Below, one piece after another: positions 770 to 32,000 of a stretch of DNA of 32,000 bases; position 1 is the stretch's first letter; the number at the start of each line of letters is the position of its first letter. The stretch lies in contig JAPLKZ010000010.1 of the NCBI GenBank assembly GCA_026387835.1, forward strand, positions 114,325 through 146,324. Direction: 5' to 3'. A program made the position numbers and the translations under genes. A model generated the notes under the pieces. That model was given only the letters and a program-made list of their open reading frames with translations. It ran no database searches and was not told the DNA's origin. The DNA comes from Candidatus Saganbacteria bacterium (GTDB lineage Bacteria; Margulisbacteria; WOR-1; JAKLHX01).

Positions 770-798
770 CGGAAATGCCCTTCCTGCCTTTTTATCCA

Positions 799-807
799 AT
801 TATATCA
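799..807 (-). promoter_or_regulatory. Candidate extended -10 promoter (TGATATAAT) for the solute-binding protein gene
   Basis: The reverse complement of 799-807 reads TGATATAAT, with the TGA being the pilin stop codon. The same 9-mer occurs at the metG promoter. It is followed by a 29-nt leader containing GGAAGGG and then TTG 769. The -35 is poor (AGGAAC). Confidence 0.4.
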
Positions 808-1224: not shown

Positions 1225-1243
1225 CACCTCCTTTCTTTATTGA

Positions 1244-1301
1244 CCACCCTCTCCCTCTCGCCCTGAGCCTGCCGAAGGGCTGGGAGAGGGAAGGGTGAGG
1301 G
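1244..1301 (-). promoter_or_regulatory. GC-rich imperfect stem-loop between the platform-protein stop and the pilin RBS (REP-like palindrome)
   Basis: CCCTCTCCC (1247-1255) is perfectly complementary to GGGAGAGGG (1282-1290). An inner GCCC (1260-1263) pairs with GGGC (1277-1280), with a 13-nt loop tgagcctgccgaa. CACCCT/AGGGTG gives an alternative register. No U-tract follows on the transcribed strand, so it is not a canonical terminator. Confidence 0.5.
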
Positions 1302-3053: not shown

Positions 3054-3064
3054 ATGCTTTGGGA

Positions 3065-4558: not shown

Positions 4559-4566
4559 ATTCAAAA

Positions 4567-4575
4567 ATTATATCA
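4567..4575 (-). promoter_or_regulatory. Extended -10 promoter TGATATAAT, 8 nt upstream of the metG ATG (leaderless-type)
   Basis: The minus strand reads gTGaTATAAT-ttttgaat-ATG(4558). There is no SD sequence between the -10 and the ATG. Confidence 0.55.
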
Positions 4576-4582
4576 CTTTTAT

Positions 4583-4636
4583 GGGTGCTTGCACCGAGCG
4601 AAGGAGCAATAGCGACTGAGTCGAGGTGTCGAAAAT
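4583..4636. repeat. Copy of a dispersed short repeat (GGTGCTTGCACYGAGC...TCGAGGTG...TCGAA) related to the argF 5' end and to 17741-17809
   Basis: gggtgcttgcaccgagc[gaaggagcaatagcgactgag]tcgaggtgtcgaaaat compares with 17751-17800, ggtgcttgcactgagctttgtcgaggtgcttgcactgagctttgtcgaa, and with 17036-17058, gatgcttgcaccgagccttgtcg. The core GGTGC-TT-GCACC is a 5+5 inverted repeat. Confidence 0.6.
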
Positions 4637-7174: not shown

Positions 7175-8947
7175 TTATTTCATTATATTCGGGGTTTCTG
7201 TCTGTATGACTTCGATCGGCGACTTATCCCCTCGCTGCAATAATGCTGTTGTGAGCCCTGTTGTTGTACTTCTCACCATCGCCACATTTGGATTTGAATC
7301 CGGATTTGTCCCGTTCATAATAAGGTAAGGATACATCAGGTTCTGATAGAAAGCGGTCATCAGTGCCAGGTTACGGAAGTTTACGCCGTCCATTGTTGTC
7401 ATGAAATTCGGCGCTCCGGCGAACGAGAATTTTGCCTGGTTCGGAAAGACACATGCCATCTTGAGCAGGTCTGACGTAAGCCCTGCATGCCCCTGCTCAC
7501 TTGCCAGCAGGTCCTTTATTGATAAAGCCGTATCTTTGGGGTTAAAGCTTGTATCAAATACAAAAGCACCGTATGAAAGCGCTGATACAGCTCCGCCCAG
7601 AAGCCCGTCCGCCCCTGCATGCGCGAACGGCAGCATCTCCATGCCTGCTCCAAAAGCAAACATCCCGTTGCCGATCTTTCCCACGGCTTCGTCGTGCAGC
7701 TGGAACACCTGCCGTAAACCGGCTTCAAGTACCGGATGATTGCTGCACGCAAAGAAACCTGGGATATTGTATGCGCTTGTGTACAGGTACAGGTGCGCTG
7801 CAAGGTCCCTTATCGTGGTGTCTTTCCCGACAGGCCAGAATTTGTCATCAAACTCTATCATCGCCTTTGTATAGTCCGCACATGCCTCGTCGCTTGCGCT
7901 GAGCATCATCGGTACAAGGACGATCTTGCCTTTTGCCCACATATACCTTCCTCCGATGTTCGGATTCAGGTCAAGGACTACTGCCCCGTTATCGTTAGCG
8001 AACTGTTTTACTTTCCCCTTGTTCGCATATGCCACCAAATACTTAAGATGCCCTCCTTTTTTTGCAAACTCCATTGATTTCAGGGTCTCTTCCGTACCGC
8101 CCCCCCTTGATATCGCGATGAAAAGTGTATTACCGGCCATCACATGTAAAGGAAGTTTAATGAGCTGGCTTGGTTCAAACACCGAATAAAGGCTCCTCTT
8201 GCTCTTCGGATCTTTGTTTACGAGCATTGGAAGATCTTTCAGATACATGTCGTTTGCGCCAATACCGAGAACAACGATATTCTTTATTTTATTCATCGTA
8301 CCGCTGCCGTATTTCTGATCCACGAGAGTATTGATATGTTTTGCGCTGTCATAAGCTTCCTGCACCGCGGCTTCCATGTTCCCGCGTATATTCCTTATAT
8401 CCGGGGTCTCGGTCGCCCAGGACGGATTATCCTCAAACAGCTGAACAGGACTAGGTCTTCCTGATGGGGCAGACATATTCTGTTCAAGCAGGGCTATCAC
8501 CTCATCTGCCCTTTTTGCATGGTCAGGCAATATTGCCTTTACCAGACTAAGCGTTTCAATTCCCGGATATACTGTAAGCCCCATCCCGCAGATATCATGA
8601 ACAGACGCCTTGCTTATCGGTCCGAAAAGCCTGTCAAGCTGCGAAGTTCTTTCAAATTCCTCACGGAGAGTTTTTAAAACTTCTCCACCTGGAGAGGTCT
8701 CCCCTGTTTTCATCTTTAACAGAAGACCATCCAGCCGTTGGCGGCCAAGTTCCACAACAAATGAATAGAAGCCCCTCGTCTGATGTGCCGACGCATCATC
8801 AATTGCCGGTTTTGACCATTTCTCCTCTCGTAGCGCCCACACTCCTACATTCGCCATGGCATGCCTTGCGTTCTGAGTTCGTAGTCTTAATCTCAACAGT
8901 GCCGCAGGATTTGTAATAACTTCATTCATATTTATTCTTATGCCCAT
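7175..8947 (-). CDS. SIS-domain sugar-phosphate isomerase, glucose-6-phosphate isomerase-like (divergent)
   Basis: PGI-type motifs appear in the canonical order. NIVVLGIGANDMY matches IGIGGSxLG. FIAISRGGGTEETL matches ISKSGxTxET. NIGGRYMWAKG matches GGR[FY]S. The motifs are substituted and there is a ~220-aa N-terminal region I cannot assign. AAGGAG lies 7 nt before the ATG. Confidence 0.55.
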   Translation of the reverse strand: MGIRINMNEVITNPAALLRLRLRTQNARHAMANVGVWALREEKWSKPAIDDASAHQTRGFYSFVVELGRQRLDGLLLKMKTGETSPGGEVLKTLREEFERTSQLDRLFGPISKASVHDICGMGLTVYPGIETLSLVKAILPDHAKRADEVIALLEQNMSAPSGRPSPVQLFEDNPSWATETPDIRNIRGNMEAAVQEAYDSAKHINTLVDQKYGSGTMNKIKNIVVLGIGANDMYLKDLPMLVNKDPKSKRSLYSVFEPSQLIKLPLHVMAGNTLFIAISRGGGTEETLKSMEFAKKGGHLKYLVAYANKGKVKQFANDNGAVVLDLNPNIGGRYMWAKGKIVLVPMMLSASDEACADYTKAMIEFDDKFWPVGKDTTIRDLAAHLYLYTSAYNIPGFFACSNHPVLEAGLRQVFQLHDEAVGKIGNGMFAFGAGMEMLPFAHAGADGLLGGAVSALSYGAFVFDTSFNPKDTALSIKDLLASEQGHAGLTSDLLKMACVFPNQAKFSFAGAPNFMTTMDGVNFRNLALMTAFYQNLMYPYLIMNGTNPDSNPNVAMVRSTTTGLTTALLQRGDKSPIEVIQTETPNIMK

Positions 8948-11690: not shown

Positions 11691-12257
11691 TTAGAACTTC
11701 ACTTTGGGTGCCTGATCTGCCCCTTTTTGGGCTTCGAACATCGGTTTTACTTTTTCAAAACCGAACATGCCTGCGATAATATTTGTCGGGAACCTGCGTG
11801 TCGATATATTGTAGACCTGCACAGCTTCATTGTATTGGCCCCTTGCATAAGATATCCTGTTCTCCGTTCCTTCAAGACTGTCCATCAACTGCCTGAAATT
11901 CGCGTCCGCTTTCAGCGTCGGATAATTCTCGACGATCATCAAAAGTCTTGATAAAGCGCCTTCAAGACCGTTAGTCGCTTCTACTTTTTCCGACACGGTC
12001 CGCGCTCCGGCCAGTTTCGCGCGCGACTGCGCTATGCTTTTGAAGACATCCGCTTCGTGTATTTTATATCCTTTTACTGTTTCAACAAGGTTAGGTATGA
12101 GGTCTAATCTTCTCTGGTATTGCGTTTCGACCTGCGCCCAGGCAGTTGTCACTGCCACGTCCTTCGAGACCAGCCCGTTATAAGAAGTTATCACCCATAA
12201 TACGGCTACCAGAAGTATTCCTGCTATCCCTATCAGCCACATTATTCCTTTTGACAT
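11691..12257 (-). CDS. lemA: LemA family protein
   Basis: An N-terminal TM helix followed by SYNGLVSKDVAVTTAWAQVETQYQRRLDLIPNLVETVKGY...NRISYARGQYNEAVQVYN, typical LemA. AAGGAGG RBS lies 9 nt upstream. Confidence 0.9.
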   Translation of the reverse strand: MSKGIMWLIGIAGILLVAVLWVITSYNGLVSKDVAVTTAWAQVETQYQRRLDLIPNLVETVKGYKIHEADVFKSIAQSRAKLAGARTVSEKVEATNGLEGALSRLLMIVENYPTLKADANFRQLMDSLEGTENRISYARGQYNEAVQVYNISTRRFPTNIIAGMFGFEKVKPMFEAQKGADQAPKVKF

Positions 12258-14988: not shown

Positions 14989-16182
14989 TTATCTCCCCAT
15001 GCCTTTCATCTGAAGACCGAAAAGGTTGATGAATCCTTCCGCATCCTTCTGATTATAAACTTCGTCTTTTTCAAAAGTAGCAAGTGAGCGGCTGTAAAGC
15101 GACTTTTTTGCTTTTCTCCCGGCCACAGTACAGTTGCCTTTAAATAATTTTATTCGTACGGAACCCGTAACATTTTTCTGCGTGCTGTCGATAAAAGCAT
15201 CAAGAGCTTTTCGCAGCGGCGAGAACCACTGCCCGTTATAAACGATCTCCGCGTATTTTTTGGATATCAGTTCTTTGTAATGCGCGGTCTCACGGTCGAT
15301 CGTTATCGATTCAAGCGCCTTATGAGCCGCATAAAGAATAGTTCCTCCCGGAGTTTCGTAAACGCCCCTTGATTTTATCCCGACAAGCCTGTTCTCTACT
15401 ATGTCGATCCTGCCTATTCCGTTCTTGCCGCCGATGTTGTTCAAGCTTTGTATCAGAGCGACAGCAGTTATTTTCTTTCCGTTAAGGCTGACCGGTACTC
15501 CTTTTTCAAAACCTATTTCTATATAAGTTGCTTTACTTGGCGCTTTTTCAGGTGATACCGTTAGGATGAACATGTCATCCTTCGGTTCTTTCCACGGGTC
15601 TTCAAGGATGCCGCCCTCGTAACTGATGTGCCAGAGGTTCCTGTCCATTGAATACGGTTTTGCTTTTGTCGTGGTAACAGGAATATTGTTTTCCTTGGCA
15701 TAATCGATCTCATCCTGCCTTGACTTTAAATCCCACTCTCTCCACGGAGCGATTATTTTCAGTTCCGGAGCAAGCGCTTTGAATGTCAGCTCGAACCTGA
15801 CCTGGTCGTTGCCTTTTCCCGTGGCGCCGTGGGCCACTGCATCGGCTTTTTCTTTTATAGCTATCTCCACTTGTTTTTTCGCGATAAGCGGCCGCGCGAT
15901 GGAAGTGCCCATAAGATAATCGGCTTCATATACCGCTCCGGACTTCAGCATCGGAAAAAGAAAATCTTTCGCGAACTCTTCCTTCAGGTCCTCGATATAG
16001 ATCTTCGACGCGCCTGTCTTCAGAGCTTTTTCCTTGAGACCTTTCAGCTCTTCCGCCTGCCCCACGTCCGCCGCAAAAGCGATGACCTCGCATCCGTAAT
16101 TATCTTTAAGCCACTTGATCATTATCGAGGTATCAAGGCCTCCGCTGTAAGCCAGAACTATCTTGTTCACTTTTTTCTTCAT
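14989..16182 (-). CDS. argG: Argininosuccinate synthase
   Basis: [13 protein letters not shown] (PP-loop), [15 protein letters not shown] and [14 protein letters not shown]. The ATG overlaps the argF stop (ATGA). Confidence 0.95.
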
Positions 16183-17069
16183 TTATTTTCTCCAATCAGT
16201 TTTACTAATACAGCTTTCTGCACGTGCAGCCTGTTCTCGGCCTGGTCGAACACTATGGAGTTACTTCCGTCCATCACATCATCAGTTATCTCCATTCCCC
16301 TGTGCGCGGGCAGGCAGTGCATCACAAGCACATCCTTTTTGGCATTTTTTAAAAGAGCTTTATTGACCTGATATTTGGCAAAATCTTTCGTTCGTTTTGT
16401 TGTTTCTTTTTCCTGTCCCATAGACGCCCACACATCGGTATAAATGACATCCGCATCTTTGACCGCTTTGACAGGGTCTTTTTCGATATCCACACCCTGC
16501 ATCTCATAACCTTTTGGACAGCATAAAATAAAATCCATATCGACCTTTTTACAAAGTAAAGCAAGTGATCTAGCAACATTGTTCCCGTCACCGATAAAGA
16601 CCATCTTCAGTCCTTTGACATCGCCTTTCTTTTCCATGACAGTAAAGATATCCGCCAGCGCCTGGCACGGGTGCTCGGCATCGGAAAGCGCGTTTATTAC
16701 GGGAACGGAAGCATATCGCGATAATTCTTCGACATTCTTATGTTCGAACGTCCTCAAAGCTATCAGGTCAACATACCTTGAAAGCGTGCGGGCCACGTCT
16801 GCATAGGACTCTCTCTTGCCCACCTGTACCATTCCGGCTGAAAGCGAGACAGCGTGGCCTCCGAGCTGGTACATGCCTACCTCGAACGATACACGTGTCC
16901 TGTTCGAAGGTTTCTCAAAGATCATTGCTATCGTGCGCTCTTCGAGCAGTTTCTTGTTCGGATATTCTTTTAACTCGCCGGTCAATTTATATATATCAAT
17001 AATATCTTGAAAAGATAAATCATTAATTGAAACGAGATGCTTGCACCGAGCCTTGTCGGGATTGTTCAT
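16179..17069 (-). CDS. argF: Ornithine carbamoyltransferase
   Basis: [10 protein letters not shown]..., [14 protein letters not shown] (S-x-R-T-R carbamoyl-phosphate motif), and [11 protein letters not shown] (HCLP motif). The track start TTG 17108 coincides with a -35 hexamer. I use ATG 17069 ([14 protein letters not shown]), which has TATAAT 9 nt upstream. Confidence 0.9.
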
Positions 17070-17078
17070 AATTATATT

Positions 17079-17108
17079 ATTATAAGTTTTATTACTTGCG
17101 TTTGTCAA
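17079..17108 (-). promoter_or_regulatory. Consensus sigma70 promoter TTGACA-N18-TATAAT, 9 nt upstream of the argF ATG (leaderless-type)
   Basis: On the minus strand, TTGACA (17108-17103), an 18-nt spacer, TATAAT (17084-17079), aatataatt, then ATG (17069). There is no SD. Confidence 0.65.
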
Positions 17109-17131
17109 ACTTCATTCAGTTATGATAAAAT
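17102..17131 (+). promoter_or_regulatory. Divergent promoter TTGTCA-N18-(TGa)TAAAAT for the plus-strand orphan gene
   Basis: On the plus strand, TTGTCA (17102-17107), an 18-nt spacer ending in TGa, TAAAAT (17126-17131), AAGGAG (17138-17143), then ATG 17153. Its -35 overlaps the argF -35 (17103-17108) on the other strand. Confidence 0.5.
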
Positions 17132-17152
17132 ATATACAAGGAGAATATAATC

Positions 17153-17692
17153 ATGGTCACACCTTTAGGCCAAAAACAGCCTTTTTCGGTATCAGCCGCG
17201 CCGAAAAAAACCCAGACCGTCGAAACCGACTGGAAAGGCAGGGTAAACAAGGCCGCAAAATCAGCTGTCTCAAACAACCCAAAGCTCGATCCTAAAGCGA
17301 TACTTGCCGAGATCAAAAACTTGAACGGGCTTATCAGGCAGGAATACAATGCCGCCGGCAAACTGGTCACTGTTGAAGACAGCCGGCTAAATCAAGGGTC
17401 TCCTTCATATATTATTTTTCCGCCCGGAATGAAGGCGATCAGCGCCATGAAATATAACGAGGTCATGCTTATGACAAGAGCGGCGCACGTCCTCGGCGCC
17501 TTATCTTCCGCCGCCCCGGGAAAAACAGAAACTGTCACCCGGTCCAAACTCAGGCAGGCTGTCGCGGTTATCCAGGAACAGCATCAGATCAAGGTCGATG
17601 ATTATGAAAAAGGCAACAAAGTGGGTTTTAACACAATTAACGCCTTCATAGAAGAACTTGAGGCCCTGATTAAGGCCGGAAGTAAACCCTGA
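17153..17692 (+). CDS. Hypothetical protein (179 aa), the only plus-strand gene, with no family recognised
   Basis: A clean ORF with AAGGAG 9 nt upstream of the ATG. It is non-repetitive and has a soluble-looking composition, with no signal peptide or TM segment. It is convergent with the giant ORF. Confidence 0.6.
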   Translation: MVTPLGQKQPFSVSAAPKKTQTVETDWKGRVNKAAKSAVSNNPKLDPKAILAEIKNLNGLIRQEYNAAGKLVTVEDSRLNQGSPSYIIFPPGMKAISAMKYNEVMLMTRAAHVLGALSSAAPGKTETVTRSKLRQAVAVIQEQHQIKVDDYEKGNKVGFNTINAFIEELEALIKAGSKP

Positions 17693-17710
17693 TCATACCA
17701 AGCGTATTAA

Positions 17711-17809
17711 TTATCCTATTATCTTTTGAATAAATTCATTTATGGAAACGAGGTGCTTGCACTGAGCTTTGTCGAGGTGCTTGCACTGAGCTTTGTCGAA
17801 GTGTTTCAT
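17711..17809 (-). pseudogene. Relic copy of the argF 5' end (first ~30 codons) with its own relic leaderless promoter
   Basis: It translates to [32 protein letters not shown], versus Arg[25 protein letters not shown]. The DNA aligns from the ATG for about 75 nt. Upstream on the minus strand are TTGATT (17845-17840), N17, TGcTACATT (17825-17817), N7, then ATG (17809). Confidence 0.5.
17749..17803. repeat. Perfect 24-nt tandem duplication (2.3 copies) of CGAGGTGCTTGCACTGAGCTTTGT
   Basis: Unit 1 (17749-17772) and unit 2 (17773-17796) are identical. A partial third unit cgaagtg covers 17797-17803. The period equals 8 codons (DKAQCKHL x2 in the relic ORF). Confidence 0.95.
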
Positions 17810-17899
17810 AGAGGTAAATGTAGCATAGAACATATCGAAAATCAAAATGGAAAATACGGAAATAATCGGTAATTATTGAGGGTAAATCAGCACGAATAT

Positions 17900-20800
17900 T
17901 CAATATGGTTCTATGTCACCAGTGTATATATCGGCTGGCTGAAGCAACCCGTAATTTCTGGAGATCTCGGCCATTGCTTCCCTGCATTTACCGGCTTTCG
18001 ACACTTCTTTGTTGATCTCATTTATTCTCGCAAACTCCGAGTAATCCGCTTTTGACCTGCAAGCTTTCACAAGAATTTTTACGATCTCATCCCGTATAGC
18101 ACCGCCATTTCCTATTGCTTTGGCTATGGCGTCCGATGTCGCCTTATTTTCCAATATTATTCTTATACATTCACTTGTTGCGTTCCTTATCCTCGCGTTT
18201 TCAGCGGCGGTACCGATCCTTGAATTATGTATCCTTGAATAAAAGCCTAAAGCTATGTCATATTTGCCGCTACTAAATGCTGATTGTGCCTTTTCCCTGC
18301 AAGAAATGTATAACTGAATCTCATTCCCCAGCATTTCTTTTTTGGACGATTCGCTTTGCGCATATTCTATTTTTCTTCCAAGTTCGGCTATATTTGCATA
18401 AGCGCTCCATCTGGTATTTGACTTCGGCAACGCAGGCTGTTCCGGCTCAGCAGGAAGATAGATTTTCGATCCGAACCTGCTTTCAAGGAACCACCTGAAA
18501 CCCGAGACCAGGTTTGGATTCTGCTGAAGCCAATATATCGTATATTCACCATTACCAAGTCTGAGCATCGACTGGGAAGGGACTTCTTCCGGACATTTTA
18601 TATTGCACTTTATTTTCCCGGTAACTTTATCAATTTCATTTCCAAAGACATCATCTATATCCTTATCGCTGATGGAATCGGATATGCCCTGTCTATTACT
18701 TACATAGAATTCGGACAGTCTCTTTAAAAACTTTTCTCCCGTTGGCTGAAGCGAGACACGGCCGTTCTGTCCATTCTTTGTCTTCAAGAACTCATTAAAT
18801 TCTTTTATGAATATTGCAGCCTCTTCTTTATTCATTCCCTTTATAAAATTATCCAAGGTAAATAATTTTTCGATCTGGAAATCGGCCGTCTTATCGATCA
18901 GCACCCTGTTTTTGGCATATGCCCCTACGGATTTCCCGATGTTATATGCTACATACAATTTGAACAGAGCCAGCTTGTCATTGACCTCGGCAATATTTAC
19001 TCCCCTGATTGAGCAATACCCCTCGAACGCTTTTCTTTCGTTTTCTTTAAGCATGCCAAGATCAAAGACTGTTCCCACTATCGAATCCTGGATCTCTGCT
19101 GTCTTTTTCTGATATTCGCTCAGGTGAACTTTTCTGATATATTCCCTGAAAAGCGACGGACATTGTTCTTGTATATCGCGCTTCAGCGGGGTCGCGGGCA
19201 TTCCCTGGATCAGCATGTTATTCTGGCTCCTCGCAAACGCCGCATCGTCAGCTTTAAGCATAATACTTCTGGTCATTCTCTCAACCGAGGGTAGGTTGAC
19301 ATAAGCACGTCTTGCGATCTGTTCAAGGACGAGGTTTTTTATCTTTTCCTTTGCATCTTCCAGTTTTATTTCGTGTCTGTCTATCCTGCCAAAAAGAAAT
19401 GCTATTTCCTGAAATGCCTTTTTCTGATTGACGAATTGTTCCAGTGTTATTGAAGGATTATCTTTCCTTTGCTTTTCGAGCTGAGCGGATACTTTTTCCA
19501 TAAAAGTTTTACTGTCCAAATAACCAAGTTCATAATATTTCAAAATATTTTCAGTATTTTCACAAATTGACTTAATCGTCTTCATATAGCCTATCACTTC
19601 TGCTCCCTCCACCCATGAAAGAGCTGTGGTTGAAAACAGCCATTCTCTTACCGAGTCTTTTCCTTTTCTTATATAGGCGTTCTCCTGATCTCTGTAAGCC
19701 TTGCGCATAGGAACGACCCATTCTTCATATAATTTATTCCTTTCATCAATATCAGCCGACGAGTTTCCGTTCATTGCATCGCTGATGCGTGGGGCTCCCT
19801 CGCATATGACTGTTCCTATAAGAGCACCCAAGCCGGCTGCTCTGGAACCGACCGCTACCGAAGCTTTGCCTAAGTTTAAAGCCCAAAGAGAGGCTTTTGC
19901 GCCTATTTGAACATAGAGTTTATTAGCTAAAACATGAGATGTCCCGTCAAGAACATCTCCGGTCCTCGCTGCTGCCGGCGATGTCATTGCACTGTAAAGC
20001 CACGGAGCTTTCTTCATCGTCCAGTTATACCCTACTCCGAATATTTCCATTCCTGCCATTGCTACTACATTACCACCAAATTCCGCAAGCGGCCGCGGCA
20101 ACTTCTTGCTGAGCGCCCAAGTGGCAATCTTTTGTGTCAACATAAAGGAACCCAGATTACCTGCGCCCTGTACGGTCACGACTAATTTTCGATCCATGCT
20201 TGCAGATTTTATATCCCTTTGAGTATTCAGAAAGATTGCAAATGCTGTTCCCTGCCCGCCAGATAATCCGAGTAAAGCCTGCCCTACCCCTCTCTCAAGA
20301 CCGAACTTGGCCCATCCGATAGTGCCCTGGATAGTTTCGTCCTCTGTCTTTGCCCACATCGTAGCGCCTTCTCCGCGAAGACCGTAGAGCAGAAAATTCT
20401 TGCCTGCGCTGACAATTATGGAAGCAAGAAATCCTGAAGCGGCGTCATGAGCGGTATTCGCTCCAACCGATGTAAGCTTCTGGCCGAAATTCCCTCCCGG
20501 TGCACCGAGGCACATCCACTGCCAGGCCCCGACCATCTCTCTGACATTATATGTCCCGTCCGAGGCTGCCGGCATTGAAAACTCCGGCACTTTAAGGCCT
20601 TTTGCTTTGTATTTTTCCGCAAGAGACTGATATACGCTTGCAAGGTATTTGTCAACAGCCTCGCTGCCGAGCAGGTTAATATCTTCCCTCACTGCCATTT
20701 TGAAGATACTGTCCATTGACATCGGAGATGATATATCTTCGATTACACTGTTCGCTTTCTTTTTTGCCTGCTCTGTTTTTTTCTGGAAATCCGGGTCCTT

Positions 20801-23800
20801 CGGATCCAGTTTTGCTATCTCTCCTTCAAATATCTGCGCGGAAACAGAAGATGCCAGGTCGCCGAATGTCTGGCTGAACCTTGAAAGACACGTTATCTGG
20901 AATATCGTGCTGAACACCTGTGTTCTGGCGACTTTTTCGCTTACGCCTATTTTTTTCAGTTCGGCCGCAGCCTGACTTATAACTCTTTCAAGTTCATTTG
21001 CCGCGCTCTTGTATTCCTTTGATGACGACAGGCATTTCGTCAGGCAGGCAAGGGTCCTGTTGTTCAAAGAGACTGTTATCTGTGCTCTCCCGTCTTTGCT
21101 GTTGATGACAATTGCTGTTTCGGTGAAAGGCTTCAAAAAGTCTGATTTTTGCACTTTATTATATTCAGTATCGGCAGCCCTTGCTTGTTGTAATTGAGCG
21201 TCTATTTCTGCCTCAAGCTTTTTCACGGCTTCAAGATAAGCATCTGTCTCGGGAGAAGCGCTCATCAGCTCGGCTATCGTCCTCTTGCTGATCTTTACGG
21301 AATAAGTTTTCCCGCCTTTTTCAACCGCGATATTCTCATAAAGGATGTTCTCGCGGTTTCCGGAAATTATCACAAGCGGAATATCGCTTGAACCCTGCAC
21401 CTGGAGCTCGCTGATGCTCTGCGAGAGCCTGGTCCTTATGGCCTCCGGATCGAAGCCCTTTCCTTTATTTGCTTCAACGGCTGCGCTGATGATCTCGTCC
21501 AGCGCTTTCTGGCCATCGATCAGCGCCCTGGCATCCGAGACGGATATCTCCATCTTTTCGCCGTCGGCTTCTATCTCGATGATATCTCCGCTCTTGGTCA
21601 GCTTTATTGTCCCTGCGTCTGCATCTTCTGCCGTTTTTATCTCTATAACTGTAGACTTGTCTGTCAGGAACGGTTCAAGCCGACCTGAGCTTTGGGCCAG
21701 ATGCAGGGAGCCGGCAAGCAGATCATTTCCTGTCAGGACGTGTCTGACGACCCTGACATATTCCCTTAACTTTGCAGCCTGTTCCCCTGATACACTGTAA
21801 TCTATCCTTTCGGCGCTTTCATAATATATGTCGCTTCCCTGCGGAGTTCTTTCGATCTCCTCAAGCAGTTGCACAGGCGTCTTTGCTTTTTCATGGGAAA
21901 TGACTATACCGCGTGGACGTACGCTCGAGTGACGGCCAAGGTAATCCTCGGCTATCTGTGCGGCTTCATGAGGATCCATTCCCTGAATTACCATAAATCT
22001 AAAGTGTATCTCGGTAAGTTCATGGGTGAAGGCATCGGAGATCCTGAGGCTGCTGTTAATTGTCAGAGTGCCATTCGCGTCAAGTTTGACAGCTGATTCC
22101 CTTACGAATACTGTATCCCCAGCAAATGCCGCGTCACCGGATATGTCCGCATCAGTAAATACCTTGTCAGGAACAACTACTACTTTATTGATCGTCTTGA
22201 GAGCGCGTGGGTTTATCATCCCCTGGCCCATTTCAAAGAATAGCTTGGACAACGCGGGAATTTCTTTTCCGGAAGAAGCCGCTCTGATCAGGACATCGAT
22301 CTGGCTGGGAGCTAAATTACCTGATTGAGCTCCTGCAACTACTGGTGCTGCGGTCGGTGCCGGCACAGGAGAGGCTGCACTGGTGTCTGCCGTTGCAGTA
22401 ACGCTTGGCGCTTTCCACGCGCCTACAAAGCTTTTCGCTCCTACTGATTTGCTTATGGCATACAGCATCCTTTTTGCTGCGTTTATCCTGTTGTCCCTGC
22501 CTATGGCTGTCGCTTCCTGCTGGAGCCGCATTTCTATATTTTCGTCTTCCTTTATAAGCCCCGTGCGGAACCTTTCTACCAGTCCGAGCTGTTCATTACC
22601 AAGCTGCCTGTTAGCGGCACTGAAGACCTCTACTATGATATTTTCCCAGCTGTTCTCAATGTTAAAGCGCATGCCCTGCTGTTCCACTTCGAAACGCAGG
22701 CTTCCTGACGGCTTATGAGAACTCGAATATTTTGCCTTGCCGGAAGTCCCGGCCAGAAAACCGTCCACCATTGTCTGCAAGCGTCCTTTTATTTCTGTTA
22801 TTGACAGATTTTCTTTTGTTCCGGGATCAAGCGCTCTTGTCACTTCCTCTTCTTTTATCCCCAAAAGCCATGCAAGGTCTTTGCTCAGTTTTGCCAGAGC
22901 ATCTCTATTGAGAGGTTTGTTCCCGTCAGCGTGCCTTTCTATCACCGCTTCCACGCCTGCCATAATGAACTTTTTCGCACATTCTATTATGTTGAGACTT
23001 CTGTTCGGCACAACACCGACACCGTCCCGCGTAACGAACAATTCATCCGAGATCCCGCGATAGTGATCTTCAATTCCCTGAAAATATTTCCTGATTATCA
23101 GTCCTTCTTCAGCCTTTGCACAGGCCTGTTTTGCCTGTTCTGTCCTGAGATCATTCTGTATAATCCTCCTTGCTGTAGCCATATCTCTGCGTGAGACTGC
23201 AACCTTTAGTTCGTCGTACATATTTGGTTCATTGGAACTTGCGGAGCTTGGCATCACACTTAAAGTTGCTTTGATGTTCGGATCATCAATAGAATATATC
23301 GGGACCACTTCTACGCTGTCTATGAACCTCCCGCCGCGCTCTCTCAACTGAATGAATGCCCACTCGTTACCGGCCGGCGAAATAGGGATCACCATGATCC
23401 CTCTTCTGACAGCCTCGGAACCCGGAGCACCTTTCACCCTGATATCGTCCGCGCGGGCGAAAGAGCCTATCGTTATTCCCGGGGTCCCTGCATGAGCGAT
23501 CGCAGCGTTCCTTGCGTTCTTTCCGGACCTGATCTCATGGTCGCACAGTTCCACTCTTCCCTTTATCGCGGCTTTCTGCTGAGGAGACAGCCCGGCTTCT
23601 ATCGCATCAGTTATCTTTCTTCCTCTTTCGGAATCTCCGGCTGTTTGTATCAATATCGGTCTTGGGGCATGCCCCTTGCTTATTGCATAATCAATTTCTG
23701 CCTGTATCCTGGTAACGATTTCATTTATCTGAGTATCTTGATCGATAACTATATTCGGATCATGCCGGACGATCAGGCTCGGGATCAGCGGCAGATCCCT

Positions 23801-26800
23801 GCCGCTATTTTGCAGTGCCATCCCTCTCATCTTATCTGCAATATCACCCAGCAGACTGTAATAACCTGTTTCATTCCCGACTGTTTCACCGCCTTCAGCA
23901 TTTCTGGTCACAACCCTGCCGTCACGCATCTGGATACAGACCCTTACAGGCACGCATTCCTGATCAGCCGTGCCTCCCGGCAGTTTAAAGAACAGTGTCT
24001 CAAGCCTCACATCACCTGTTGTTGCAGCCCCGCTCGTTCTTGCATCAAATATAGCCTGCAAAGCTCTCCTGCATCCGTCTGCATCCTGTCCCGCGTAATC
24101 CCATTCGGAAACGTTCCTGCTCAGCTCGACAACTTCAATACCAAGCCTTTCAAAGAAAGCCCTGACCTCCGGAACCGTGAGGGTGCCTGACATGAATACC
24201 TTCAACCCCCGGAAGGAAAGCAAGAATTGCTGAGGTGTCTGCGACTGTATTGCCGTTAGTTCCTGCCTGATGGGGAATCCGCACATTGCCTCAAGCGCCT
24301 GATGGAGGCCTTCGTTAAACCTGTTGTCAACCATTATCTTCGAAACATTTTCATCGACAACATAAACTTGTCTTTTAACACGGTCCACATATACTTTTTT
24401 GTCATCGATAGTTTTTTGGGCTTTCATGCAATTTATGACCATATCCACTGTGCCCGGTTTGTTTGCCAATTCGCTGAATTGTTTATTGGCCATTAAAAGT
24501 GCTTCTATATTTGGCCTGTCGCTTTCTCCAATTCCTCTTGACATAACATATTTTGCTGCTTTGGCTGCTTTTCTCCATTGTTTTGCATTGGCTACTTCAC
24601 TTCCGTCCCCGCCTCCGGAAAGGATGAGAGGCGTCTTGCTCATGTCTATCATAAAATATTCGCCTTCATCCGCTGTATAGCTGCGCTGAAAATCGACAAA
24701 TGCGGCTTCCGCGGGCGGCATCGTCCTGCTTATCAGGTCAACCACCATGAAATCGTACAAAGAGCCGTAAACGACCGGCGATGAAAGTTCCGTCCTCAGC
24801 CTCGCCTGTGAAGATTTCGAATCCACCACGCCCACCTTTGGCACGCCCATCACCTCATAACATTCCCTGAAACACTCGGCATCGCGCTCGGCAAAGATAT
24901 GGTCTGTCGTGAAAGAATAACTCATACCCTTGTCCGCCCGCCACCTGTTTATGTTCACGCCAAAGCATATAGCCGATTTTCCTCCGCCGCATTCTTTATT
25001 GAACGAATACCCGAGATAACCTCTCGCGACCGCTTCCATCTGTGGGAATGTAAAGCGCAGGTGGTTATATTTGTATTCCACTTTCTTGGTGCCGGGGATC
25101 GTTCCGGGGACTTCATCCGCGCTTTTACCGAACAAATAGACCGAGATCCTGGTCAAAGCCAGTAGTTTTGTCCTCGCTTCAAAACTACTAAAATCACCGT
25201 GAAATCCTTCCATTTGTTCATTGAACAGTTTTTGATATCCTTCTTTTGCTCCTTTGATATTTCCGCTGTCGACCAATTCTCTTAATCTTTCTGTCTCAGC
25301 AGTGATCGTACGCTCATTGCATACTCTCATAGCATCTTCGACCATCTTTTGGACTGCTTGTTCCTGTGTCGTCACTCCGGCCGGCAAAACGAGTTCGACA
25401 TGTCTTCCGATATCAATTCCCAGGTCTTGAGCTATTTCGCTTAAGTTTTGGCCGCTCACAAATTTTATGTGGTCCGCTAAATCAACGATTGCTCCTCTTA
25501 AAGTCGCAACTTGCTCAGGTGCTGATATTACCTTTCTGTCAATTATCAATCTTTCCCGCCCTATCTTTATCCTTAATAGTTTTGCGCCCGAATTAGTTAT
25601 ATATGGGCTCATCGCAATCTCATTACCATCAACGATCTCTATCCTCCCTATCGGCAAAGTTTCGATAGACCTGTCAATACGAATAGTCTGTGTAGGTCCG
25701 CTTTCAAATATTTCCTCGACCGCGTCTCTGAATATCTCGCATCTCTTATCCCCTTCTATCACCGAGATCGGCTCATCCTGCCTTTTCACAAATCTGACAG
25801 CTCTTGCGGTCCGGGTGCTGTCCGGAAGGCTTTCGAATACAAATGTGCCGCTTCCGTTAAGATGTTCAGGGAATTTTGCGCGGTAATCAGGCTGATAAGA
25901 ACCGCGGATCGCCCTTCTCGTTACTGCAGACGGGCTTACACCGAGATCTGCGGCTGTCTGTCTTTTTTGATCGCCGACAAAAATAAAATCTTGAGGGTGT
26001 TCGGCTGCTTTTACCGCTCTTCCTACCCTGTCAGCTAAACAGCTGATGAAATATAAAGAGACGACCCTGTATGAAAATCTTCCTGTTTCGTACGCAGTTC
26101 TGCCCCCTGCCATTACCGCCGTCCTTAGGGCAGGGTGATCATTCAAATACTTCCTGACAGGGCCTATTTTGGTGGGGTCTCCGGAATAAGAATTCTTTAC
26201 CCATTCTGCGCCTCTGACTAAACAATCTTCAATCGTGATATGTACCCAGTCAAGCCCCTTCCCTATTTTCCCGTCCCTTCCTACACGGTCCATAGTCCAT
26301 TCGGCGCCGCTGCCTAAAACTCTGAATACTGTTCTTGTACCAAGAGGCAGAGTCTTATGGGACATATACGGCATACCGCGCGCTCTTCTAGTGACATAAT
26401 CCGCCCCCCGCAGGGCAGAATAACTTGCCGCCATTGTCTGGAGCATCCAGAACACTGATTTTCCTATTAATTTGTCCCAGTCGTCTTCAGTTTTCCAGAG
26501 ATCGTTAATTTTTGAAAGTCCCAAGCGCGGGTCTATTCCGTATCTTACAAATGCTTTAGTCATGCTTGCAAGCTGGTAAAGCAGGCCGTCTTCATATCCC
26601 GTCCCTTCGGTCCCGAAGAAAATATTGTCTGCCGCTGACCAGTTGCCTGTTGTTTCGCCTTTGATTATTGCTTCGGACCACGATTTCATCTTCCCGCCGA
26701 CATTTCCGATCTGCCAGCCGATCGCAGCCGGCATCGTCTGCCACGGCAGAGCCTCTTCAACCATGTTGAACAAAAATGGAACGCCGCTGAATGTCTTTAG

Positions 26801-29800
26801 CGGTGTCGCCCATGTGCCGTCGAATACAGGGTTCATCCTGTGCTCCGGAGTGCATTCCCCGTACATATTTAATTCGACCATCTGAGGTATTTTCTGGGTA
26901 CCGTTTATTCCGAAAGTCTCCCTCAGCCCGCGCTGGAGGTAATGCTGGACGTTGGCGAGGTCAAAGCTTGCTTCCGGAACTCCGGACGTCCTCTCGAACA
27001 GGTCGAGCACCGTGAAAGCGTCAAGCAGGGCGCCGGAAAAAGCTTTTTCAGCTTCGCTCTTTGCGGCCTCCGGATTAGAGATATCCGAGGCATCTTCCGC
27101 TTTGAAACGGTCTACTGGACTGATCCATTCCCATTTTTGCGCCTTATCATCAAACCTTAAATTATAAAGTCTCTTGCTTGCGGCGGACGGCCACATCGAT
27201 CTGTTATTATTTAATCTGTCAAGAACAAGGTTCAGGTTAGTTACTGTTCGTCCGATATCCTGCACGTCCACCTGGTTGAACCTTGCTATGCCTTTTTGAT
27301 CACCTTCGAACGGCCTGAAATCAGATATCATCTGCTTTTTTTGGCTTTCGGAAAACCTGTAGTTAAAGAATTTTACATAAAACCCTATTGATGTCTTTGG
27401 ATTAGCCTGCGTCATCGCGCCCATCGTTGCAAATATCCTTTGCCAGACGATATTCTTCGCGGACATCAGATTTTCTCCGGATACTGGCGCATTTGCCTTA
27501 AATTTTGTTGTGTCGGTATCCGCGGCATTTGCGCCCATTGATGTCAGCGCTATAGGCAAGCCGCCTGTCATTATTAAAGACGATGATATTAATGTGAGCC
27601 AGTTGAGGTCCGACGAAGAGACGGGTATTGCGAACATCATCCTTATCAGGAGCATCTTTGCTATCGTCGTGTCGCGGTTTTCTACCGGAAGCACCGTCAG
27701 AGTCGTCCAGCCGCCGTCCCTCTGGATCGTCTTTAAGATGAACTTTTCGATATCTTCAAACGTTTTCAGCCCCGTTGCTTCGGCAATATAATCCGAGATG
27801 GACTTTTCATATTTCGGCTTGCCCTGCTCGTCATAGACGACCATGTTTTGACCGAAAACATATTTCATTATATTTTCCGAGGTCTTTATCCTGCTGATGG
27901 CAGGGCTCAGCGACAGGAAGAAATTTTCATCGATCCTCGTATCCATCATCGGTGAAAGCTTCTTTGAAAGTTCTCTCCTCAGACTGCCGAGTTCCCTGTT
28001 AAGCGAAATTAATTCGGTATAATCATCCGGATATTCTTTTTTCCAGTCTTCCAGTTCCTTTTTCTTTGCACCTTTGGTTTTTTCGTTCAGGAACGAGTTA
28101 ATATTTGCCTCGATCGTTTTTATCTTCTGCATCGTAACGTCGATCTCACCCTGGAGCTCACCGATCTTTTTGACCGCGGCTGGCTGAAGAGAGGCTTTTA
28201 ACAGCATCACCTGCAGCCAGGCTTTTTCCCCGCTTATCCTCTGTCTCGGCACTGTCACCAGGGACCTAGTATCCTGGTTCCATACGCGCAGCATCACGCT
28301 TGCAGTCTTTGATAACCAGGAATCACCTCCCACCACTTCTCCCGGGATATCGGCGACAAGATCGACCTGGTCAAGCTGCCAGCATATCCTGTTCACTGTT
28401 TCCGCATATTTTCTGATGTTTTCAGGCAGGTCGTTCAGCCTTGTAGTCCTGAGGACTTCTCCGGATTCTTTCAGCCATTTTGCAAGCGCCATCAGTCCGT
28501 CTTTGTCTTCATCATTGTTTATCCCGCCCTGCACGGGGATAAAATAGCCTTCCATCTGGCCTCTTTTAATCACCGCGTCTGCATCGCTAAGCTCTTTAGG
28601 GCAAAGTTCCCTTGTGCCGACATAAAGATTTGCCAGCGCTTTTAAAGTTTTTAACTCCTTTAGAGTTGAACCGTTTAAAAGCATGATGTTTTCCGCTATC
28701 CTTTCGAATTTTTTCCGGTCGCTAGGATCTTTCAGAAATTGTGCCAGTTCGTCGAGGAATTGCTTCAGCTCGCCCTCGTCTTTTGGCGTGGCTTTTACAA
28801 GTTCTGTTTTCAATAATTCTGCCAGCCTCTTCCTTAATTTCCCGATATCATCTATATCCTGCAGGGTCAGGAACGTTTCCTGCCCGGGATTCACCAGACA
28901 TGTAAATAATTTGCCCAGAAGTTTATTTTCTTCGGCTGTCAGGCTTATCTCGTGTTTTTCTTTTACGACAAAAGAAAGAGAGGCTATAAAATCGTCAAAG
29001 TTGCTTACAGGCAGTGCCGATGATAAGTATATTCGGCCTTTCCTGTCGAGAAGGACGGCCAAGGCCGTGACGTCAGAAAAAGTCATGTAATTTTCTTTTG
29101 GTGATGAAATATTTCTGCATCCGGCGCCTATCATCATAGCCTTGGCAAGCGAGTAAGGCGCTTTCTGTCCGAAGACGTTTAGGTCTACTTTTTCGTTTTC
29201 ATTTGTCGGCTTTATTTTCGGTCTATCCGAGATCTCTTTCGGGGACGCTTCCTGGGCTTGGGTCGGTTTGTTTATTGTCGTGAACATTTTTCCGTCAAGT
29301 GTGACTGAACCTGCGCTCACATAGGTCTGCCTTGTCTTGGGATCGCCCTGGTCCATGAAATACACTCTGGCGGCGGCCCCTGCCAGTGATCCGGAGAATT
29401 TCTTTTTCAGTTCCTGCTGGTCAGGATCGAATTTTGTCTTTTCTTCTTCATTTTCGGTGATCCCGGAAGCCTTTATCCACGCGGCTGTCCTGTTCTCTTT
29501 TACGACAAGGCCGGCGGTAGCCAGAGCCCTGTTAATTTCCGAAATGCTGAAAGCTGCGAACTTCAGTGCTTCTCTTTTTTCCGGCTTCTCGTTTTTTTCG
29601 GCCTTCTCTGTAGCTTTAAAGAACTGCTGCGCAGCGATAAAGAAAGCCTCGCGTTCTTCGGCAGTCGCGTTATTCAGCCAGCCCAGAAAGGATGTTATCT
29701 TGTCTATTTCTTCTTTTGTCGGTTTGTATTTCAGAATCAGTGTGATCAGCTGCTTTTCCATGTCCGTAAATTTTGGTTTGGCTTCTTTTTGTCCGTAAAA

Positions 29801-32000
29801 AGTGCCTGTCAGGGGGGTAAGGATCCTGAGTATCTTTTCGCCCTTGTCCTTTTCGCCTTTCAGGGCGTTCTGCAGGCACAGCACATACGCCGCAGCCTGC
29901 TGATCGACAAGCGCGTCCCTGTATCTCGTCTGGTCTTTTGCGGTGGAAGACATCACCCTTCCGAATGATTCGTTGAGCAGCAGGTCTTCGGCCGTTATTT
30001 TTGTTGCTTTTGCCCCTTTTGACCTGAACGCGATCGTATTAAGCAGCATCACCAGGTTCTGGTCGGCTTTCCCCTTTTCATAGTTCTTGTATCCGTAGTG
30101 TTTTTCAAGGACATCCTGGATCGTTTCGATTTCTTTCAGCGTAGCAGGCACAAGCGAGTGTGTCCTGTCCCTTTTGAGCACGATGATATTTTCTATCCTG
30201 CCAGTCTCTGACGGGTCGTCAAGGTTCACGGGATAGTAGAATTCAAACCTGAAACCGTCAAGGATCGTCTTGGTGCCTGTGATAAAATCGCCCTCTTCGA
30301 GCTGCGGTATCTGTCCGAGCTGTCTTGGAGTGCTCAGTTTCTCCAGCCTTTGTCTTTCCTGATCCCATTTAGAATGGACCTCATCGATCGCTGATGTGAT
30401 CCTGTCAGAGTCCTTTTCACCGGGACAAAATACCTGATGGAATGTGTCAAGTGCCTGAAGCGTCGGTTTATCAAGCTTGTTCTCGTCCTGATTCACGTCA
30501 GAAGTGAATATCGCCTTGACCCTGAAATCTTTTTTCGCCGGATCGGGAAGCAGGCCCATGGGAGAAGATGCCAGCATCAGGCTGTCTTCCATGAAACCCA
30601 TCTGAGAAAGAGTCTTTTTCTTGTCCTCGCTGAAATGCGTACCCCTTGCGAAAGGAAGCCCCGGTCTGTCCTCCGGTGTCTTTTCTGGTTTTTCAGATTG
30701 TACATGTATATTCAACCTTCCTATGCCCGAAGCTGTCCAGCTGCCGCTGTCGTCTTCTTTGATCCCTAATTCTTCACTGTATTTTTGAAGGATCAGGGTC
30801 ACAGTCCTTTCGGCTTCTTCTTCTGAAGAACCCTTAGGGATAAGCAATGTTATGCTGAACGACCTGTCAGGACCGCTCTTTGTCCTTCTTGCTTCGGCAA
30901 GGGCCGTCTTAATGGATTTTAAAAATTCACCTTCCCTGACATGTGTATCTATTTCAGTCCCGAATGACGCCGACTGGTCTTTCCATGGCATGATATTGAG
31001 CTCTTTTTCGACCGCCGCCATCTCTTCTTCTGTCAGGCAGTCCATAACAGCCTGCACCTGGATGTTCCTGAACTGTTCCGCGAGCATTTTTATCCCGTCC
31101 TCGTTGAGCGGTATGCCGCCGAACGCCGTTATCTGGGCTTTTATCTGCTCCGCAGTTGAAGTTATTGTTATTTGTGAAGGATCAAGTATGAATTCATTTA
31201 CGGTAAGCCTGCTTCCTTCCCCTATTTTCTGGCTGAGAATATCCATTTTCAGCATCGAGAAATATCGTTTTCCTGCATTCGTCTTCAGGTATTTTTCGAT
31301 CAGCTCTTTTGTCCTGGGGCATTCTTCAGCCTTTTTCTGCTTTTCTCTGACATTGTTTAACCCGTCAAACAGCTTGCTTGAATACTCGCCGTATTTTTTC
31401 TGGTATTCCTCTATCCTGGCCTGGTTTTCGCTGACCCAGCTCCATTGTTCGACCGGGTTCCCGGCAAATAAAATAGATCTCAGGTTCGCGTCCCTTATTC
31501 TTTTCGAGTCCTGTTTCTTAGTCCCGGATATTTGTTCATCCGCGAATTTTTTCAGTCTTTCGGACGCATAATCACGGACAGCTTTCGTAACCGCCTCGGA
31601 GAAGGCATCCTTTGTCGCCACTTTTGCCTGGTCGGTGTTTATCTCGCCGAGCATCGTTAGCAGTTCATCGGCTCCCGGTATATCTTTTTCCTCGCCTTTA
31701 AATGTCGTCGCCCCGAGCTTTTTCATGATCTGGGCAAGCATCCATCTGGCACCTCTTGCCGCTGCATCTTCTTTTTTGACGGCCTCAAAGTCCCTTGATA
31801 CGATCAGCTGCGCAGCTTTGTTCTTTGCCGCTTCATCTGAAAATATTTCTTTCGGGGCTGTCTTGCAGATGTCGGCCAGCAGCGCTCTTTCCCCGGATAT
31901 CTCACTTGACCTCTGCAGGCCGGCTTTGTAGCTTTTTATTTCCGACAGGGCTTTTTTTATCGCCTGGGGAAGTTCCTGAGGTTTTACAGTATTCTGGGTT
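17900..32000 (-). CDS. Giant protein of unknown function, 5'-partial (at least 4,699 codons inside the window)
   Basis: The ORF track gives 4,613 aa from ATG 31741 to TGA 17900. I translated the same frame across 31742-31999 and found 86 sense codons with no stop: [86 protein letters not shown], then MLAQIMKK. The other two minus frames contain stops there. Confidence 0.85.
   Translation of the reverse strand, partial: [4699 protein letters not shown]
19790..20535 (-). other. Gly/Ala-rich hydrophobic block near the C-terminus of the giant protein (candidate membrane-inserting region)
   Basis: About 250 aa running from [16 protein letters not shown] to [17 protein letters not shown]. It contains [61 protein letters not shown] and [18 protein letters not shown]. 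These are several 18-22-aa hydrophobic stretches with small-xxx-small spacing, flanked by K/E-rich helical sequence. Confidence 0.5.
23282..25170 (-). other. SecA-like motor module (NBD1-PPXD-NBD2) embedded in the giant ORF, about aa 2190-2820 from Met-31741
   Basis: It is colinear with SecA as I recall it. [13 protein letters not shown]...[30 protein letters not shown] matches TGEGKTLTATL...[41 protein letters not shown] matches [67 protein letters not shown] matches [59 protein letters not shown] matches [38 protein letters not shown] matches [24 protein letters not shown]. Confidence 0.8.

Follow-up and report, generated by a model that had tools for sequence, protein, structure and literature searches.

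Divergent SecA motors lodged inside giant proteins were described by West-Roberts et al. (2023; 10.1101/2023.11.21.568195), who reported, in giant proteins of Omnitrophota and Actinobacteria, SecA_DEAD and PP_bind domains without scaffold or wing that group, on a long branch, in a clade distinct from the normal SecA of those genomes, and who proposed export of the giant itself. A 20-protein architecture cluster carrying PF07517 is found among the long proteins surveyed by Nielsen & Lui (2026; 10.64898/2026.06.07.730766), and secondary SecA_DEAD proteins, with SecA_SW wholly or mostly missing, are known from Planctomycetes, Verrucomicrobia and others (Kamneva, Poudel & Ward 2015; PMC4452313). 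None of these three studies mentions Saganbacteria, and the main Saganbacteria genome paper mentions neither SecA nor giant proteins. Here we analyse a stretch of 32,000 nucleotides from a Candidatus Saganbacteria metagenome-assembled genome (MAG; contig JAPLKZ010000010.1, positions 114,325 to 146,324; hereafter the window), in which a protein of 4,613 residues carries a SecA-homologous module in its middle. An earlier note, made from the sequence of the window, knew of no described architecture of this kind, for which the giant Omnitrophota and Actinobacteria proteins are the precedent. The architecture has thus been known since 2023, and the small, undescribed, Saganbacteria-containing family presented here is a new example of it.

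A divergent SecA motor in the middle of a giant protein

The giant open reading frame (ORF) corresponds in length and sequence to NCBI MCX5749535.1, deposited as 'MAG: hypothetical protein NTZ10_04770 [Candidatus Saganbacteria bacterium]'. The module embedded in it truly derives from the SecA ATPase, from which it has diverged very strongly, and comprises two RecA-like domains (nucleotide-binding domains NBD1 and NBD2) with the preprotein cross-linking domain (PPXD) inserted in the first (Table 1). The Pfam profiles SecA_DEAD (PF07517; E 1.1e-8, 35.2 bits, cut-off 24.6) and SecA_PP_bind (PF01043; E 1.9e-6, 28.9 bits, cut-off 23.5) match the giant above their gathering cut-offs, whereas SecA_SW finds no match, and the SecA models of NCBIfam match at 1.5e-19, far under their equivalog cut-offs (69.7 versus 814 bits for PRK12904, 67.9 versus 800 for TIGR00963). 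Against the Protein Data Bank (PDB), phmmer recovered M. tuberculosis SecA1 (E 8.7e-16), aligned over SecA residues 117–409, and a profile of the nine-module family described below matched every solved SecA (E ~1e-53 to 6e-53). The profile match consists of three colinear stretches, namely NBD1 around Walker A, NBD1 together with the PPXD and the NBD1 return, and NBD2, the last of which pairs with residues 446–622 of T. maritima SecA at 6e-14. Alignment with hhalign to a profile of 20 canonical SecAs gave a probability of 100% and an E of 4.9e-46.

The predicted fold agrees with these assignments. An AlphaFold2 model of aa 2181–2900 reached a mean predicted local distance difference test (pLDDT) score of 74 and a predicted template modelling (pTM) score of 0.67, and its top 36 Foldseek matches are all SecA (best 3.1e-23, ~690–740 aligned columns), followed by helicases of superfamily 2 (SF2) at ~1e-7. 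The proposal of the earlier note, that a SecA-type motor is embedded mid-giant and colinear with SecA in native domain order, is therefore borne out by Pfam, profile and fold matches alike, and all seven motifs that it quoted lie exactly where it placed them.

The divergence of the module is considerable. Identity to any canonical SecA does not exceed 29% (25–29%), in matches that span about a third of an 847-aa query segment, and on a canonical SecA hidden Markov model (HMM) the module scores 74 bits compared with at least 299 for ordinary SecAs. In addition, the PHROG family phrog_32805, an 806-position profile of unassigned function, matches aa 2275–2541 of the giant (window ~24119–24919) at 4.5e-11; some phage records may accordingly carry SecA-like proteins.

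A family of giants with the module at the same relative position

An exhaustive phmmer search of the module against 1.84 billion representative proteins, of which the best 150 matches were considered, returned the giant itself and eight other clusters of 2,758–5,251 aa (E 2.9e-55 to 2.4e-8), all other matches among these 150 being of ordinary SecA size. In each of the nine giants the module sits mid-protein, at the same relative position. On the canonical SecA HMM the nine score 31–82 bits and the other 141 matches at least 299, a gap that marks the giants as a discrete and very divergent group. They were found only by this exhaustive search of representatives; separate homologue searches with the module and with the family profile gave only canonical SecAs, and one with the upstream conserved region (Table 1) returned nothing, even though the giants are part of the proteins covered. 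A search of genome contigs with the whole giant gave no match and one with a four-sequence alignment gave a single locus, and a search of metagenome contigs gave one already known contig and three matches, at 24–25% identity over residues ~98–368, that are probably ordinary SecA genes. The homologues derive from ENA, JGI, NCBI and Logan assemblies. Four of the nine clusters carry a source name, and three of these are Saganbacteria MAGs (the window protein and two homologues), one of the homologues being labelled 'SecA family profile domain-containing protein' in UniRef.

Homology among the giants extends well beyond the module. In BLASTP comparisons the window protein is homologous to P0122 over aa 1312–2820, to P0123 over aa 910–2578 and 3728–3976 (the latter corresponding to P0123 2974–3206), and to the more distant P0168 over aa 1235–1423 and 1992–2581. 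Since the similarity reaches hundreds of residues past the module, the whole architecture is of common origin. Identity along the 4,613 residues peaks at aa 2301–2500, within the block formed by the PPXD and NBD1, and the PPXD is the best-conserved block of the whole giant family. In five other members, SecA domains are all that Pfam detects. Profile and sequence searches of aa 1–1100, 1100–2180, 2900–4613 and 3650–4150 of the window protein against the PDB found nothing, and self-BLAST of the giant revealed no internal repeats. The family is new: a lineage-specific family of giant proteins with a SecA-derived module fixed inside.

The ATP-handling residues are invariant among the giants

The module alignment covers 720 residues of the nine giant homologues, at 18–29% identity overall and 19–29% relative to the window module. 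Only 19 of its 720 columns are invariant, and 14 of the 19 are classic SecA/SF2 motif positions (marked as invariant in Table 1), whose residues serve ATP binding and hydrolysis in SF2 ATPases, SecA included. The residue that follows the P-loop Gly-Lys is Gln in P0124 and Ser or Thr in the eight others, and the QLRERGGR of the window is identical to canonical QLRGRSGR at six of eight positions. In subfamily B, the members P0133, P0168 and P0215 are near-canonical, with GTGKT/GQGKT/SGGKT, DEFD/DEYD, ARRGTD and QK..R..R.G in place of the corresponding motifs, and bridge canonical SecA and the KECGGGKS/DEGE/ARADD version of the window.

These catalytic motifs had been taken as partly degenerate. 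Rather, the substitutions fall on non-catalytic positions, and the residues that handle ATP are kept across the family. Invariance of catalytic residues at such low identity is the pattern expected from purifying selection on ATP turnover, and we regard the module as almost certainly a true homologue of the SecA motor that selection maintains for catalysis.

The motor and PPXD are complete, the flanking SecA regions largely unmatched

Of the complete SecA envisaged by the earlier note, the motor and the PPXD are present in full, but SecA_SW, SEC-C and the first ~60 SecA residues are unmatched. Alignments begin at SecA residue ~38–80, so that the first ~60 residues are without an aligned counterpart, and the AlphaFold model is disordered before aa ~2228. 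A Pfam scan of the whole 4,613-aa protein yielded no match to SecA_SW (PF07516) at E≤1 and none to SEC-C (PF02810), a domain also missing from some genuine SecAs.

Directly after NBD2, AlphaFold places a ~48-residue helix (aa 2854–2901) and a helical bundle (to aa ~3001), at a pLDDT of ~60–79. In the full-length profile alignment (hhalign MAC), this bundle is matched to the beginning of the SecA wing domain with high posterior confidence, and a standalone comparison of the C-terminal part, itself non-significant, shows the same register. Upon addition of the extension to the model, the Foldseek alignments to full-length SecAs grow from ~690–740 to ~900–950 columns and the TM-score per target rises (for example from 0.47 to 0.57 for 3jv2_A), whereas the truncated SecA-N68 and the isolated motor stay at ~630–650 columns. 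These three observations hint at a remnant of the scaffold helix and wing, for which the segment after NBD2 is a candidate.

At the junction of NBD1 and NBD2, all nine giants carry an insert of variable length that is without counterpart in canonical SecA. In the window protein it spans from the end of NBD1 (...SRNVSEWD, aa 2548) to the first strand of NBD2 (IVIDQDTQ, aa 2664) and is modelled, with low to medium confidence, as a small subdomain of strands and helices. Its length had been put at ~130 aa; the measured value is ~110–115 aa, as the ~30 residues that precede PILIQTAG pair with the opening strand and helix of NBD2 in SecA.

Table 1. Features of the giant protein and of the window, with window positions (SecA-derived borders are approximate)
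Feature	Residues (aa)	Window position	Strand	Remarks
Giant ORF	1-4,613	17900..31741	-	single uninterrupted frame, 13.8 kb
Stop-free in-frame codons upstream of annotated ATG		31742..31999	-	86 codons, reaching the window edge
Conserved upstream family region	~1166-2180	25202..28246	-	common to both subfamilies; no Pfam or PDB match
SecA-homologous module	~2226-2825	23267..25066	-	NBD1, PPXD, NBD1 return, family-specific insert, NBD2
NBD1, first part	~2226-2381	24599..25066	-	approximate borders from SecA alignment
Q motif	2234	within 25028-25048	-	in NBD1; invariant Q2234
Walker A CGGGKS	2251-2256	24974-24991	-	in NBD1; invariant G2254, K2255
Walker B DEGE	2358-2361	24659-24670	-	in NBD1; invariant D2358, E2359
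IDMSKTPLILSG		24614-24649	-	in NBD1
TPLILSG		24614-24634	-	in NBD1; invariant P2371, I2373 (TPLI)
PPXD	~2382-2499	24245..24598	-	includes DNRFNEGLHQALEA
GLHQALEA		24287-24310	-	within PPXD
NBD1 return	~2500-2548	24098..24244	-	with motif III
Motif III FMSGT		24182-24196	-	NBD1; invariant S2518, G2519, T2520
Family-specific insert at NBD1/NBD2 junction	~2549-2662	23756..24097	-	~110-115 aa
NBD2	~2663-2825	23267..23755	-	
Motif V FARADDIR		23438-23461	-	NBD2; ARADDI at 23441-23458; invariant R2763
Motif VI QLRERGGR		23327-23350	-	NBD2; invariant Q2798, R2802, R2805
Helical extension	~2854-3001	22739..23182	-	~48-residue helix, then small helical bundle; candidate scaffold helix/wing remnant
Gly/Ala/Ser-rich region	~3728-3985	19787..20560	-	low charge, moderately hydrophobic; candidate membrane-interacting region
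Prepilin and GspF/PilC-type platform protein		805-2288	-	prepilin with N-terminal methylation motif

The giant gene occupies a fixed site in an arginine cluster

The start of the giant given in the database is the ATG at 31741, with AAGAGG ~10 nt before it. No stop interrupts the frame over 86 further codons, as far as the edge of the window, so that the true N-terminus is not fixed by the window and the protein could exceed 4,613 aa. The called and deposited ORF is nonetheless of that length, and not above 4,700 aa as had been estimated.

All sizeable genes of the window are on the minus strand. Downstream of the giant follow argF, argG, argH, ndk and the genes of a TPM-domain protein, LemA and leucyl aminopeptidase (pepA), and further downstream those of an NAGPA-type glycosidase, an SIS/PGI-like protein, a transporter, MetRS, TatD, a GspF-type platform protein and a prepilin. 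At the homologous locus that encodes P0124 (L003, 1–28182), argC-argJ-argB and three unannotated ORFs precede the giant, which is followed by a 162-aa ORF and then by argF-argG-argH-ndk-TPM-LemA-pepA, the same gene order as downstream of the giant in the window (giant-argF region, window 16179–31741). Likewise, argC-argJ-argB and two unannotated ORFs lie upstream of the giant at the locus of P0271 (L001, 1025–21808). As the conserved order shows, the giant gene is chromosomal and vertically inherited, at a fixed site in the arginine cluster of this clade, and does not lie on an island, a phage or a plasmid. A site between argCJB and argFGH is an odd location for a 14-kb gene of unassigned function.

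Comparison with described SecA proteins

With canonical SecA (TIGR00963/PRK12904; PDB 1tf5, 1nkt, 3jux, 5eul) the module shares the order NBD1-PPXD-NBD1-NBD2, all ATPase motifs, the fold and the PPXD stem motif GLHQA.EA. Canonical SecA is free-standing, whereas the module is embedded at residue ~2226 of 4,613, contains the ~110-aa junction insert and lacks the N-terminal ~60 residues as well as any match to SecA_SW or SEC-C. Accessory SecA2 (TIGR03714, NF012136; PDB 6sxh, 4uaq) is likewise a specialised paralogue with a reduced C-terminal region and is matched structurally, but it is free-standing (~780 aa) and far closer to SecA. Indeed, the module stays far under the SecA2 cut-offs (36.4 versus 930 bits for TIGR03714, 31.2 versus 1100 for NF012136), and the window holds no accessory Sec genes. 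The secondary SecA_DEAD proteins (PMC4452313) resemble it as extra, divergent SecA_DEAD copies without most of SecA_SW that are presumed to act outside general secretion; they are, however, described as separate proteins, encoded in conserved neighbourhoods together with HlyD/OEP genes that resemble type I secretion. Neither the window nor the homologous loci contain an HlyD or OEP gene; the neighbours there are arg genes, ndk, TPM, LemA, pepA and similar.

The closest likeness is to the Omnitrophota giants, which also contain an internal SecA DEAD motor and PPXD in a far larger ORF, are without a Pfam-detectable scaffold or wing and have long-branch sequences. The two groups differ in lineage, the three named relatives here being Saganbacteria, a sibling lineage of Cyanobacteria, and in size, with 2.8–5.3 thousand residues compared with more than 30 thousand (published 30,000–85,000 aa). 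Whereas the Omnitrophota giants carry glycosyl hydrolase/transferase, methyl-, peptidase and dockerin domains, Pfam detects none of these in the window protein and five relatives. Numerous transmembrane helices are described for the Omnitrophota giants; here a crude Kyte-Doolittle scan gives marginal segments but no clear helix. The fixed position in the arg cluster and the possible scaffold-helix/wing remnant are further differences. As the best 150 matches of the module include nothing above 5,251 aa, the Omnitrophota modules show no detectably closer relation to this family than does ordinary SecA.

The architecture therefore exists outside the Planctomycetes-Verrucomicrobia-Chlamydiae (PVC) and Actinobacteria lineages, at a stable chromosomal locus, an observation that favours a role in the cell over one in mobility or conflict. 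The giants of the uncultured Omnitrophota are very hard to approach experimentally. The proteins of the present family are a tenth of that size, with a clearly bounded module of ~600–800 aa and intact catalytic residues, and include a subfamily with near-canonical SecA motifs. With an excisable module, the family offers a much more tractable system for the study of embedded SecA motors.

Possible function of the embedded motor

On balance, we lean towards the view that the module is an ATPase of SecA descent, still active and still able to clamp polypeptide, which works in cis or on a close partner as part of a lineage-specific giant protein. It would hydrolyse ATP and would clamp and move unfolded polypeptide, an activity that we infer from the PPXD and its stem, where conservation is strongest along the whole protein. 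The likeliest job would be the threading or insertion of some part of the giant, such as its hydrophobic Gly/Ala-rich C-terminal region, into or across a membrane, for which the self-export proposed by West-Roberts et al. is a precedent, and an alternative would be to remodel or assemble the giant protein; a service in general secretion is not envisaged. The Gly/Ala/Ser-rich region, with several marginal hydrophobic segments, is a candidate for contact with the membrane, with which the giant may associate, and a similar cluster lies near the C-terminal third of most other giants. Given the loss of the SEC-C tail and of a recognisable wing/two-helix-finger region, the module would probably not act on SecYEG in quite the canonical manner. 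We attach only a small chance to the bolder proposal of a self-contained device independent of SecYEG, in which a motor acting in cis, with the junction insert and the remnant scaffold, would feed the Gly/Ala-rich region of the giant or a partner into the membrane. The motor would in that case have been captured by its own substrate and, had this arisen independently of the Omnitrophota giants, the capture of motors by giant proteins would be a recurrent evolutionary solution.

Several observations weigh against an active, polypeptide-clamping motor of this kind, or against parts of it. The substrate and the direction of action are purely inferred, and the remaining ~3,800 residues of the giant have no match in Pfam, PHROGs, NCBIfam, PADLOC or the PDB. 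There is no obvious signal peptide at the N-terminus of the giant, and the Kyte-Doolittle scan, a crude measure, gives three to six marginal segments with 19-residue means of 1.4–1.65 at most. With regard to the scaffold remnant, the region after NBD2, when compared alone with the C-terminal third of SecA, reaches an hhalign probability below 1%, and it is modelled at a pLDDT of 45–79. No channel or secretion gene adjoins the giant in the window, the GspF-like gene and the pilin being ~15.6 kb away with housekeeping genes between. Furthermore, the large upstream ORFs at four homologous loci are BLAST-similar neither to each other nor to any giant and are without hydrophobic segments.

The second hypothesis of the earlier note, an exapted peptide-binding module in which a SecA fold with weak or no catalysis serves as a scaffold or clamp without ATP turnover, could account for the departures of the window from the SecA consensus (GEGKT to GGGKS, DEVD to DEGE, IDEARTPL to IDMSKTPL, GRGTD to ARADD) and for a score far under the SecA equivalog cut-off (69.7 versus 814 bits). 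Dead ATPase domains, however, normally lose their catalytic residues first, whereas the residues that contact or hydrolyse ATP are kept in this family despite 18–29% identity, and we consider a weak or dead module improbable. To a similar degree we doubt that the module is an SF2 helicase or translocase acting on nucleic acid and the giant a machine that handles DNA or RNA. SecA does belong to helicase superfamily 2, and UvsW, DinG, LGP2/MDA5 and Hel308 are the next structural matches, but these are 16 orders weaker than SecA (~1e-7 versus 3e-23) and cover only the shared RecA-like core (TM ~0.2–0.35). The PPXD, which is specific to SecA and to polypeptide binding, moreover scores above its Pfam cut-off here and is conserved more strongly than any other segment, and Pfam and NCBIfam detect no nucleic-acid-binding domain in the whole protein.

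The third hypothesis of the earlier note saw in the giant an effector or toxin-like protein for other cells, whose SecA-like part would mimic or hijack the Sec machinery of its target. A giant and otherwise unrecognisable protein, with genes of type IV pilus/type II secretion system kind in the same window (805–2288), would fit such a role, and SecA-bearing giants of Omnitrophota have been linked to a predatory or episymbiotic lifestyle (10.1101/2023.11.21.568195). Unlike these, the window protein has no toxin, adhesin, carbohydrate-active or peptidase domain detected by Pfam, and it is without a signal peptide or a secretion-system neighbour. Its gene is a stable, syntenic chromosomal gene in an amino-acid biosynthesis cluster and not part of an island. 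The main genomic description of Saganbacteria, which reportedly portrays a fermentative, hydrogen-based lifestyle, makes no mention of secretion, pili or giant proteins, and we therefore judge an effector very improbable. An artefact of assembly or annotation, in which a fragment of the housekeeping secA was fused in silico into a long ORF, might be suspected as the source is a metagenome-assembled genome. Nevertheless, no stop breaks the frame over its 13.8 kb, the module shares no more than 29% identity with any canonical SecA and reaches 74 bits on the canonical HMM, and eight other clusters from independent samples and assemblers place it at the same relative position between homologous flanks, in a conserved gene order. 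A mis-assembled piece of the real secA, which the earlier note had kept in view, conflicts with this identity and with the eight independent giant homologues, and the chance of an artefact is practically negligible.

Other features of the locus

The gap between the giant and argF contains several smaller features. A 42-nt piece of the 5' coding part of argF (17017–17058) is repeated just 3' of the stop codon of the giant (17733–17774) with 86% identity and is followed by a 24-nt partial tandem copy (17757–17798); from their sequence and placement, the repeats look like the trace left by a rearrangement or an insertion in the stretch that separates the giant gene from argF. G+C is 0.42 at window 17000–20000, which includes the 3' end of the giant and the gap that follows, and 0.46–0.49 elsewhere, except in the adjoining 16–18 kb stretch (0.445). 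An ORF of 179 aa without a Pfam or PHROG match is found in the gap on the plus strand (window 17153–17692). At the same position, L003 and a further homologous locus (L004) have ORFs of 162 and 149 aa on the same strand as the giant, 37% identical to each other over 86 aa, which are absent from the window.

At three homologous loci, a nucleotidyltransferase gene (NTP_transf_2/Polbeta) and an adjacent ORF lie directly downstream of the giant (L001 21931–22945, L002 12096–13110, L005 21837–22555). The adjacent ORF matches HEPN in L005, faintly so in L002 and not at all in L001, and the pair does not occur in the window.

A phage or mobile-element origin was considered and rejected, as the PHROG matches of the window are to housekeeping genes (MetRS, OTCase, LemA). 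LemA (11691–12257) and MetRS (3065–4564) match PHROG families of which one is labelled 'virion structural protein', a label that, taken alone, would mislead towards a phage context. A megablast search against phages gave a single 67-bp match and PADLOC none, and tblastn with the module against phages and plasmids gave nothing but ordinary secA genes, on chromids or in records contaminated by host sequence. Finally, a 590-aa ORF on the minus strand (7175–8947), for which Pfam finds no match, has weak, partial similarity to glucose-6-phosphate isomerase/SIS proteins (2e-14, 53 bits versus a cut-off of 487).

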